DNA of 64,000 nt from positions 26,290,001 through 26,354,000 of the forward strand of contig CM097885.1 in NCBI GenBank assembly GCA_044892525.1. The letters run 5' to 3'. Source of the DNA: Schmidtea polychroa. Its lineage: Eukaryota. Below the pieces are notes generated by a model. That model worked only from the letters and a program-made list of their open reading frames with translations. It was not told the DNA's origin and made no database searches. The position numbers and the translations under genes are program-made. Below are positions 4,696-64,000 of the stretch, piece after piece (within the stretch, counting starts at the first letter, position 1; each line of letters starts with the position of its first letter).

Positions 4696-7600
4696 TTCCA
4701 GCTGAATTATCTCTACGCCGGCTTTCTCTATAAGCTTCGGCATTTCCGTTTTTGGTTTATCATCATGGATTTCAAGGGCCCAAATTTCTTTGTACAACAT
4801 ACACAACATACGAAATCATTTTCACTACTAGAACATAAAATAAAGCACCCTCGACAATGGTAAAGAGCTTCAAACATCATACAATCATAAATATCCATAG
4901 AAATAACAGCAAGTTTGAAATAGGTCTACAAGAGGGCGATATCTGGATTTATGACATCCCAGAAGGCATTTTTGTGAAGGTTTTCATCGGGAATTTCAAA
5001 TTGATATCAATAATCAGATATAAGCAATGGATGTTCTTAAGGCCTAAATGCTATAGCCTTTTGAGTGATAAAGAGAGCAACAAGGCTAAGGGAATAACAT
5101 TGAAGGTTACCGACTTAAAACATCAATCGTAACTTGATTGTTATCATAATAATTCGATGATTTCAATACCACAATCTCGAATAGTAAGTAAAAATCATCA
5201 GTTATTTACAAAAAAATATATAAAATTAGCCCTAGGCATTGGGTAAATAAAAATGAAAGTTTAGCATATGGTCATTATGAAATAGTTAACACGGATATGG
5301 GTAATAGTAACAATGCTTAAGTTAATGATCCGGACGAAGATATTAATCAATATGTTAATCCACATTTCCCAAATGATGATTATGGCCACTCACACTTTCC
5401 ATATGAAAAGGAACATCAATATGTACTTGAATGAATTTTGAATTAAAATAAAATTTATTTAATATAATTATTGTTTTAGTTCTTACTTGTATCATTTGCA
5501 TTTTATGTTGTTATTGTAAAGTATCCTTTAGACTATTTTATTGTGAAATAGTCAAAGTTTTTATTGTTGTGAACAATTTAGTTATTAAAAGGTTTTATCT
5601 TTATTATTATTATACAATTATTCAACAGATATCTTAGGTTTTTATTTAGTCAAATGGCAGATCTTGATATATACAACATACGAAATCATTCTCACTACTA
5701 GAACATAAAATAAAGCACCCTCGACAATGGTAAAGAGCTTCAAACATCATACAATCATAAATATACATAGAAATAACAGCAAGTTTGAAATAGGTCTACA
5801 AAAGGGCGATATCTGGATTTATGATTTCCCAGAAGGCATTTTTGTGAAGGTTTTCATGGGGAATTTTAAATTGATATCAATAATCAGATATAAGCAATGG
5901 ATGTTCTTAAGGCCTAAATGTATAGCCTTTTGAGTGATAAATAGAGCAACAAGGCTAAGGGAATAACATTGAACGTTACCGACTTAAAACATCAATCGTA
6001 ACTTGATTGTTATCATAATAATTCGATGATTTCAATACCACAATCTCGAATAGTAAGTAAAAATCATCAGTTATTTACAAAAAAATATATAAAATTAGCC
6101 CTAGGCATTGGGTAAATAAAAATGAAAGTTTAGCATATGGTCATTATGAAATAGTTAACACGGATATTGGTAATAGTAACAATGCTGAAGTTAATGATCC
6201 GGACGAAGATATTAATCAATATGTTAATCCACATTTCCCAAATGATGATTATGGCCACTCACACTTTCCATATGAAAAGGAACATCAATATGTACTTGAA
6301 TGAATTTTGAATTAAAATAAAATTTATTTAATATAATTATTGTTTTAGTTCTTACTTGTATCATTTGCATTTTATATTGTTATTGTAAAGTATCCTTTAG
6401 ACTATTTTATTGTGAAATAGTCAAAGTTTTTATTGTTGTGAACAATTTAGTTATTAAAAGGTTTTATCTTTATTATTATTATACAATTATTCAACAGATA
6501 TCTTAGGTTTTTATTTAGTCAAATGGCAGATCTTGATATATACAACATACGAAATCATTCTCACTACTAGAACATAAAATAAAGCACCCTCGACAATGGT
6601 AAAGAGCTTCAAACATCATACAATCATAAATATACATAGAAATAACAGCAAGTTTGAAATAGGTCTACAAAAGGGCGATATCTGGATTTATGATTTCCCA
6701 GAAGGCATTTTTGTGAAGGTTTTCATCGGGAATTTTAAATTGATATCAATAATAATGGATGTTTTTAAGGCCTAAATGTATAGCCTTTTGAGTGATAAAT
6801 AGAGCAACAAGGCTAAGGTAATAACATTGAACGTTACCGACTTAAAACATCAATCGTAACTTGATTGTTATCATAATAATTCGATGATTTCAATACCACA
6901 ATCTCGAATAGTAAGTAATAATCATCAGTTATTTACAAAAAAATATATAGAATTAGCCCTAACTATTCTTGATGCTAATAGGCATTGGGTAAATAAAAAT
7001 GAAAGTTTAGCATATGGTCATTATGAAATAGTGAACATTTTTGTGAAGGTTTTCATGGGGAATTTCAAATTGATATATATCATTTTATTGTTTTATTATT
7101 ATTATTATTATTATTATTATTATTATTATTATTATTATTATTATTATTATTATTATTATTATTATTATTATTATTATTATTATTACTATTATTATTATTA
7201 TTATTATTATTATTATTATTATTATTATTATTATTCCAGGTGAATTATCTCTACGCCGGCTTTCTCTATAAGCTTCGGCATTTCCGTTTTTGGTTTATCA
7301 TCATGGATTTCAAGGGCCCAAATTTCTTTGTACAACATATACAACATACGAAATCATTCTCACTACTAGAATATAAAATAAAGCACCCTCGACTATGGTA
7401 AAGAGCTTCATTGTCGATAAATATCCATAGAAATAACAACAAGTTTGAAATAGGTCTACAAAAGGGCGATATCTGGATTTATGACTTTCCAGAAGGCATT
7501 TTTGTGAAGGTTTTCATCGGGAATTTTAAATTGATATCAATAATCAGATATAAGCAATGGATGTTCTTAAGGCCTAAATGTATAGCCTTTTGAGTGATAA

Positions 7601-61841: not shown

Positions 61842-64000
61842 GTTGTGAACAATTTAGTTATTAAAAGGTTTTATCATTATTATTATTATACAATTATTCA
61901 ACAGATATCTTAGGTTTTTATCTAGTCAAATGGAAGATCTTGATATATACAACATCCGAAATCATTCTCACTACTAGAACACAAAATAAAACACCTTCGA
62001 CAATGGTAAAGAGCTTCTCTCAAATTTGGTCATAATTTTTTTATAATGATATTTAATGATGAAATTATTAGTATTTTTTAATGATATTTAAATTTTTATA
62101 ATGATCTTAAGAGTAAAAATATTTTGAAATAAATATAAGGGGAAATCCCTCGCAAAAATTTGGTTTTTTGGTTTATCATCATGGATTTCAAGGGCCCAAA
62201 TTTCTTTGTACAACATATACAACATACGAAATCATTCTCAGTACTAGAACACAAAATGAAACACCCTCGACAATGGTAAAGAGCTTCAAATCTCAGACAA
62301 TCATAATTATCCATAGAAATAACAACAACTTTGAAATAGGTCTACGAAAGTGCGATATCTCAATTTATGTTTTCCCTGATGAAAATTTATTATGACATAA
62401 TTCGAATAAAGCAAAAGAATTTCAAATTGATATCAATAATCACAGTTCACAATCATCAAAATACTCCGGTGAGAATGATCCTTCGTACTTTAAAATTGGG
62501 ATAACAATAAGCAACCCATATCTTCATGGACAACAGAAGATATCTTAGAGTTTTATCTAGTCAAAGGGAAGATCTTGATATATACAAAATCCGAAATCAT
62601 TCTCACTACTAGAACACAAAATAAATCACCCTCGACAATGGTAAAGAGCTTCAAACCTCAGACAATCATAAATATCCATAGAAATAACAAGTTTATAATA
62701 GGTCTACAAAAGGGCGATATCTGGATTTATGATATTCCAGAAGGCATTTTTGTGAAGGTTTTCATCGGGAATTTCAAATTGATATCAATAATCAGATATA
62801 AGGAATGGATGTTCTTAAGGCCTAAATGTATAGCCTTTTGAGTGATAAATAGAGCAACAAGGCTAGGGGAATAACATTGAACGTTACCGACTTAAAACAT
62901 CAATCGTAATTTGATTGTTATCATAATAATTCGATGATTTCAATACCACAATCTCGAATAGTAAGTAATAATCATCAGTTATTTACAAAAAAATATATAA
63001 AATTAGCCCTAACTATTCTTGATGATAATAGGCATTGGGTAAATAAAAATGAAAGTTTAGCATATGGTCATTATGAAATAGTTAACATTTTTGTGAAGGT
63101 TTTCATGGGGAATTTCAAATTGATATATATCATTTTATTGTTTTATTATTATTATTATTCCAGCTGAATTATCTCTACGCCGGCTTTCTCTATAAGCTTC
63201 GGCATTTCCGTTTTTGGTTTATCATCATGGATTTCAAGGCCCCAAATTTCTTTGTACAACATATACAACATACGAAATAATTCTCACTACTAGAACATAA
63301 AATAAAGCACCCTCGACCATGGTAAAGAGCTTCATTGTCGATAAATATCCATAGAAATAACAACAAGTTTGAAATAGGTCTACAAAAGGGCGATATCTGG
63401 ATTTATGACTTACCAGAAAGCATTTTCGTGAAGGTTTTCCTCGGGAATTTCAAATTGATATCAATAATCACAGTTCACAATCAACAGGTTACACTTTCAT
63501 CTAAATCCTACGGTGAGAATGATTCTTCGTACTTAAATAATGGGATAACAATAAGGAACCCATATCTTCAGGGACAACAGAAGATATCTTAGAGTTTTAT
63601 CTAGTCAAATGGAAGATCTTGATATATACAACATACGAAATCATTCTCACTACTAGAGCACCCTCGACAATGGTAAAGAGCTTCAAACATCATACAATCA
63701 TAAATATCCATAGAAATAACAGCAAGTTTGAAATAGGTCTACAAAAGGGCGATATCTGGATTTATGATTTCCCAGAAGGCATTTTTGTGAAGGTTTTCAT
63801 CGGGAATTTCAAATTGATATCAATAATCAGATATAAGGAATGGGTGTTCTTAAGGCCTAAATGCTATAGCCTTTTGAGTGATAAAGAGAGCAACAAGGCT
63901 AAGGGAATAACATTGAAGGTTACCGACTTAAAACATCAATCGTAACTTGATTGTTATCATAATAATTCGATGATTTCAATACCACAATCTCGAATAGTAA

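Follow-up and report, generated by a model that had tools for sequence, protein, structure and literature searches.

The mosaic tandem array that occupies the analysed window of Schmidtea polychroa DNA (64,000 nucleotides, about 27 % G+C throughout) from position 4696 to its end is probably a young repeat, in which the trimmed 3' end of a Polinton-type DNA polymerase gene and a 352-bp repeat have been multiplied by unequal exchange as functionless DNA. Homology to polymerases, a sharp joint between the two components, a stop codon common to the copies, and nested insertions with their copies are all directly visible in the 59,305 bases of array within the window. The original prediction of a satellite built from the 3' end of a polymerase gene describes the core of the monomer, while the monomer as a whole appears to be chimeric, its other part being a separate 352-bp repeat. 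The modules are referred to as u (the 352-bp unit), P (the polymerase-like piece), T (the tail) and V (the 3' region), and the Polinton inserted in the array as the resident (Table 1).

Table 1. Positions of the array modules and inserted elements within the window
Feature	Position	Strand	Remarks
P, least broken copy; last ~100 codons of the polymerase	42779-43072	+	stop at 42893-42895
u, 352-bp unit, not polymerase-like	57107-57458	+	2.6 head-to-tail copies at 56876-57807
T, acidic C-terminal tail with a terminal stop	46081-46225	+	15 copies; likely the donor's natural gene end
V, 3' region	5436-5625	+	AATAAA at 5447; probable 3' UTR of the donor
L module, 100 bp	4696-4795		left border of the array; recurs inside it after (TTA)n runs
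152-bp insert	46708-46859		insertion site of the resident Polinton, here unoccupied; four copies empty, three filled
Resident Polinton	28298-42628		left terminus present, right terminus missing
Resident capsid	29996-31288		PF21738
Resident PLA2-like + integrase	31318-32727	+	PF00665, PF08398
Resident ATPase	32707-33570	-	PF04665
Resident protease-like gene	34989-35513		weak Pfam match only, E 0.06
Resident polymerase	38208-42380	-	PF03175
Left-arm copy (end, capsid gene, integrase start) joined to u	14490-17726	+	3,237 bp
Second left-arm copy	22716-25952	+	
hAT transposon	49255-51515	+	8-bp target duplication; copies at 54242-56502 and 59581-61841; 0-1 differences
173-bp MITE	46324-46496		8-bp target duplication; further copies of this insertion at 49034, 54021 and 59360

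The polymerase piece and its donor

To judge by its protein homology, the core of the satellite monomer is the 3' end of a protein-primed DNA polymerase gene. A stop-corrected peptide had been expected to retrieve such polymerases, and the translation of positions 42629-43072, with X at the single stop, did so in an exhaustive protein search (of 1.84 billion proteins, 434 reach E ≤ 1e-3, the best with 1.3e-31); among the 150 matches listed of these 434, none begins before query residue 38. Searches of longer proteins and of proteins of similar length scored three of 200 candidates (all PF03175; best E 8.4e-28, 56 % identity) and three of eight (best E 9.1e-29, 59 % identity), respectively. A Pfam scan of 43 matches, which were selected by the author and are mostly long proteins, placed PF03175 in fifteen and only an Endonuclease VII-like finger in nine, with no assignment in eighteen; the last is unrelated. 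The best full-length match, P0004, and the resident polymerase can be aligned across 1,138 columns (28.6 % identity, E 5e-109), and the donor gene can be assigned to the protein-primed family B polymerases of the PF03175 type. A profile of seven full-length outside polymerases matches the array only at profile positions 1093-1208 of 1217, so that the fragment lies beyond all catalytic motifs, and these are absent from it. A further profile scored 119.6 bits against a maximum of 7.6 in 499 scored shuffles, a comparison that is partly circular in that its 130 rows were recruited with the fragment. The fragment itself is recognised by neither Pfam nor PHROGs, no solved structure matches the polymerase alignment, and direct pattern searches among viral contigs gave five stretches, none of which was confirmed as a relative. 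One repetitive match (P0029) was discarded as unrelated.

Thirty-five long and four short copies of P are found in the window, all 39 on the plus strand. The stop is present in 35/35 copies covering the codon and aligns, as anticipated, with a column conserved in outside polymerases. The description of a single frame split by one TAA is accurate for the least broken copy, and for that one full-length copy only, as further lesions occur among the 35 (a 1-base deletion in 17 and a 19-base deletion in 15). The DDKR variant reported near 12351 was recovered in the copy at 12167-12503. All fifteen tail-bearing copies carry the 19-base deletion, an undeleted polymerase end is never joined to the tail, and in no array copy do both fragment ends lie in one stop-free frame; a working protein cannot be encoded by the array's polymerase copies. 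The tail-bearing monomers end in EHQYVLE and a stop, with AATAAA 12 bases on, in agreement with the natural gene end that had been proposed. An open frame like that of T was reached in 432 of 20000 shuffles. Contigs from public sequencing runs bridge P to T (runs X5 and X7), and diverged contigs link polymerase-end matches to V matches (X1 and X5), so that T and V are likely the donor's own gene end.

The fragment and the resident polymerase share 30 % amino acid identity over 63 residues (pairwise E 0.001), a search of the window with the fragment protein finds the resident polymerase at E 0.14-1.1, and at the DNA level the two do not match. The collinearity with the C-terminus of the resident polymerase, on which the fragment's identity had been argued, thus holds as polymerase homology, the likeness to the resident being weak when taken alone. 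Since the fragment is 56-59 % identical to outside proteins, against 30 % identity and no DNA match to the resident, its donor is of a lineage other than the resident. In a tree of 43 rows, chosen by the author, its nearest rows are P0007, L005/P0005 and P0004; a branch supported at 95/94 separates it from the resident, and the two are joined in 0/200 bootstrap trees. A clade of satellite plus resident is not rejected by an AU test (p 0.34), the branch being long, while a quick 132-row tree is unresolved and leaves the fragment unplaced, away from its best pairwise matches. The separation of donor and resident is carried by the identities and not by the trees. The probability that the fragment derives from the resident's own polymerase, as proximity and the AU result would allow, is next to nil, given that the array copies are 98 % alike and yet show no DNA match and only 30 % protein identity to that gene; the DNA comparison refutes the resident polymerase as the source. 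Among 83 polymerase loci compared, 26 match the fragment, and eight of these also have an integrase match (one with ATPase and protease in addition). The two closest, L004 and L005, are too short to show integrase or capsid neighbours, so that the term Polinton-type applies firmly to the polymerase and presumptively to the donor element.

At least 20 public runs from seven studies include a portion of the monomer, and none of these is registered as an RNA run. Contigs of four runs from four studies (X1, X5, X6 and X7) were aligned to 43124-44080 at 80 % likeness; X6 is only guessed to be RNA, and no expression evidence is drawn from it. X1 and X5 have contigs of very high depth, depth being no copy number. 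Both X6 and X7 have contigs whose match sets in precisely at 43472 (four differences in 112 letters and eight in about 218, respectively), and these contigs continue upstream for some 300 letters that are unlike the array. Because contigs 96 % identical to the fragment start at the joint and extend past it in the upstream direction, the species probably still carries the donor family, which may be regarded as a living one on this comparison of sequences. The original prediction of a different and divergent donor is thus borne out in the difference of lineage, but the donor is apparently neither vanished nor divergent. At the position of the stop codon, the share of depth that reads no stop is 58 % (X1), 99 % (X5), 100 % (X6) and 100 % (X7). 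As 35/35 array copies share the stop while most or all run depth at the codon lacks it, the array appears to descend from a single stop-bearing founder.

The 352-bp unit and the composition of the array

Pieces of u stand before almost every polymerase copy, with the joint at 42779 in the least broken one. The DNA match to locus L005 begins at 43472, which is the first base of a P copy. From this position the contigs of X5, X6 and X7 lead back to 43124, a ring joint by which u closes on itself, and which is found in none of the listed pieces of X1; its depth in X5 is 25,088, compared to 17-42 for the eight listed long pieces of that run, depth again being no copy number. The joint of u to P is bridged by none of 32 contig pieces listed (a further 1,148 stand outside that list), which is uninformative either way.

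The monomer is likely a chimera of a polymerase gene end and a separate 352-bp repeat. The alternative that the whole monomer is Polinton DNA, with u as a repeat internal to the donor or to another Polinton, or as an accessory gene of either that has decayed (possibly a beta-propeller), is rather unlikely. It could draw on a frame of 96 codons that is open across u (98/20000 shuffles were as good, the frame having been picked after looking), on neighbours of u in a protein atlas that belong to beta-propeller families (0.90-0.93), and on the polymerase profile, which extends about ten codons into u at a GNFK look-alike and no further. Recognition in the atlas was, however, below threshold and a second frame gave nothing, u closes into rings without polymerase DNA, and the near-identical contigs depart from the array sequence exactly at the joint. 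Furthermore, there is no protein match to u, and the absence of any of the 150 listed matches before residue 38 also weighs against a monomer of Polinton DNA throughout. Searches with u gave no protein homologue (nine candidates), Pfam yielded nothing below E 0.1 in any of its six frames, and no 22-base stretch of it is matched exactly among viral contigs. Between positions 28000 and 50000, Rfam recognised no family except one tRNA-like unit in the Polinton arm. The last ten codons of u resemble the polymerase motif that precedes P, and this resemblance may have directed where the joint formed; relative to L005, no excess of DNA likeness upstream of the joint was found (2907/5000 shuffles were as good). 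The presence of a degenerate catalytic motif in u was rejected for lack of a profile match.

In the chimera favoured here, the simplest monomer (~869 bp) comprises part of u, a 294-bp P, a 145-bp T and a 190-bp V, with alternative units arranged as u-P-u and often followed by a (TTA)n run and the 100-bp module L. Basic units of ~869 bp and blocks of 5-8 kb are repeated head to tail on a single strand, and the array is an irregular mosaic rather than a uniform monomer. The 35 P copies are homogeneous, with a mean pairwise identity of 97.9 % (minimum 94.9 %). Within the 59,305 bases, P accounts for 9,904, T for 2,169, V for 3,650 and u for 11,551, the resident Polinton for 14,331, two extra left-arm copies for 6,474 and three hAT copies for 6,783, the remainder being small pieces. 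Of the 31 kb made up by array modules, roughly half is thus homologous to a mobile element. Polymerase-derived DNA (the last ~100 codons, the tail and the 3' region) makes up about 630 bp per monomer, and the expectation of tens of kb of such DNA proved too high: it occupies 15.7 of 59.3 kb, against 11.6 kb of the 352-bp unit and 27.6 kb of inserted elements and their copies. On the minus strand of module L (4696-4795), an open frame of ~45 codons runs opposite to the rest of the monomer and has no family match.

The resident Polinton and other insertions

A second Polinton was predicted to be hosted by the array and is present, though its right end has been lost and part of it has itself been amplified. 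Like the Polintons/Mavericks and animal 'adintoviruses', in so far as the available part of PMC8502044 describes them, the resident encodes a polymerase, an rve integrase, a packaging ATPase, a double jelly-roll capsid and a PLA2-like domain. This domain is fused to the integrase in the resident, as opposed to the pX-like part in PLA2X (PMC8502044, same part). The integrase frame has a start that resembles an N-terminal zinc finger, and its PLA2-like domain is of the parvovirus type. The resident begins within the 152-bp insert and abuts u on its right side at 42629. It has no right terminus and no target duplication, and is thus a truncated element; its right side (42426-42628) matches only 29005-29232 (84 % alike), the outer 700 bp are absent, and no reverse copy of its end motif was found. 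An identity of 84 % between the inner inverted repeats is low for the two ends of one element, and the resident may be a recombinant of two relatives. In its arms, the tRNA-like unit at 29624-29696 on the minus strand scores 32.4 bits against the Rfam tRNA model, with no call by ARAGORN, and further such units were recognised by eye at about 29140-29210, 29860-29940 and 42450-42530.

The left arm is cut inside the integrase gene, and its three copies show 1-2 differences. The hAT transposase frame (49496-51286, 596 codons) is open in all three copies of the transposon. Since the copies share the same target duplications and show 0-2 differences in 2.3-3.2 kb, the insertions would predate the block duplication. 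The near identity of the left-arm copies, and the hAT and MITE insertions copied together with their target duplications, indicate that the block duplications are very recent, or in part an effect of assembly. It is very unlikely that the large blocks (the left arm and the hAT unit, three copies each) are an over-expansion of a shorter real array by the assembler. The 0-2 base differences and the fact that no listed contig spans a monomer could be explained in this way, whereas monomers that differ by about 2 % with distinct indels, blocks that vary in module content and (TTA)n length, and the occurrence of every array module in public runs speak for a real array.

Origin of the array and comparison with known satellites

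From the above we infer the order of events, the route of recombination and the neutrality of the process. An array of the 352-bp repeat would have existed first, into which an element of the donor family would have entered or been copied, with capture of the donor 3' end. The captured element would have been trimmed by short-homology deletions at short look-alike sequences, after which the stop and then the 19-base deletion would have arisen. The 152-bp insert would have followed, then the Polinton, MITE and hAT insertions, with the duplication of 5-8 kb blocks last. The array would grow neutrally by unequal exchange, converting inserted elements into repeat units, of which the polymerase end would be the older and the capsid arm the newer product of trimming and amplification. 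The resident Polinton likely represents this process midway, having been inserted, had its right end replaced by array DNA and its left arm amplified.

The original prediction also raised the production of small RNAs against the donor family. That the array is kept as a source of piRNAs or siRNAs against the donor and resident families, as an antiviral memory locus, is quite unlikely. The fragment is ~96 % identical to contigs of the presumed donor, a likeness sufficient for targeting, the resident capsid gene and the hAT transposase are each present three times in the array, and piRNA clusters are rich in element relics according to the available part of PMC12628747. Against this, polymerase pieces (39), capsid copies and transposases are without exception on the plus strand, with no inverted copy, and therefore antisense transcription would have to be assumed; the uniform orientation of the polymerase pieces provides no built-in hairpin. 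The near absence of the stop-bearing form in three of four runs is, moreover, what a strain-level expansion would lead one to expect. A shade less probable still is an array that acts as a trap, digesting invading Polintons into repeat units (the donor polymerase end, now the resident capsid arm) that are read into silencing small RNAs as a self-amplifying antiviral memory.

Read as the product of neutral amplification, the array is a clear new example of a known route of satellite DNA origin. LmiSat34-299 of Locusta migratoria is likewise a satellite family with homology to a Polinton coding sequence, that of Polinton-1_LMi (PMC4935994, in part). The rows available for LmiSat34-299 name no gene, while for the S. 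polychroa array the resolution extends to the gene part, the joint, the gene end and a near-identical donor family; the S. polychroa monomer, unlike LmiSat34-299 as described there, is chimeric and includes a second repeat. Among satellites that stem from retroelement 3' ends or reading frames are chicken HinfI (partial ORF2 and 3' UTR of CR1), the cetacean common satellite (L1 3' end), rye E900 and Phodopus PROsat (PMC9659126, in part), in which the monomer similarly joins the end of a coding region to 3' untranslated DNA of a mobile element. Their donors are retroelements, unlike here, and Polinton or Maverick has 0 occurrences in the available text of PMC9659126. The 'shuffled' satellite-transposon loci, or transposon graveyards, of oyster Helitrons (PMC12628747, in part) resemble the array in that pieces of satellites and elements are intermingled through insertion, deletion, tandem duplication and recombination, and differ from it in that two Polinton lineages and a hAT element are involved here. 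No polymerase-end satellite described as such was found in the largely open-access literature searched, and the available parts of PMC7859515, PMC13130569, PMC12694884 and PMC7754599 hold nothing relevant to one.

On DNA evidence alone, the array is a well-resolved but ordinary case of satellite birth. It offers a dated snapshot of such a birth from a virus-like element, in which the donor family is seemingly present at ~96 % identity, the founding copy is marked by the common stop and the later insertions order the events. The pace at which captured element pieces are trimmed and amplified, and the small-RNA feedback of such arrays on Polintons, are made testable by it.

To the left of the array lie short, intron-less open reading frames at 3-386 (+), 423-797 (+), 3123-3560 (-) and 3633-3899 (-), which may be a piece of another virus-like element. 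One is a TBP-like frame with a single repeat (PF00352, E 5e-15) and another encodes a RING finger (E 3e-8), the other two being without assignment. The stretch at 1331-2234, which has TGTTG at one boundary and CAACA at the other and is adjoined by a purine-rich tract on the minus strand, resembles an LTR.
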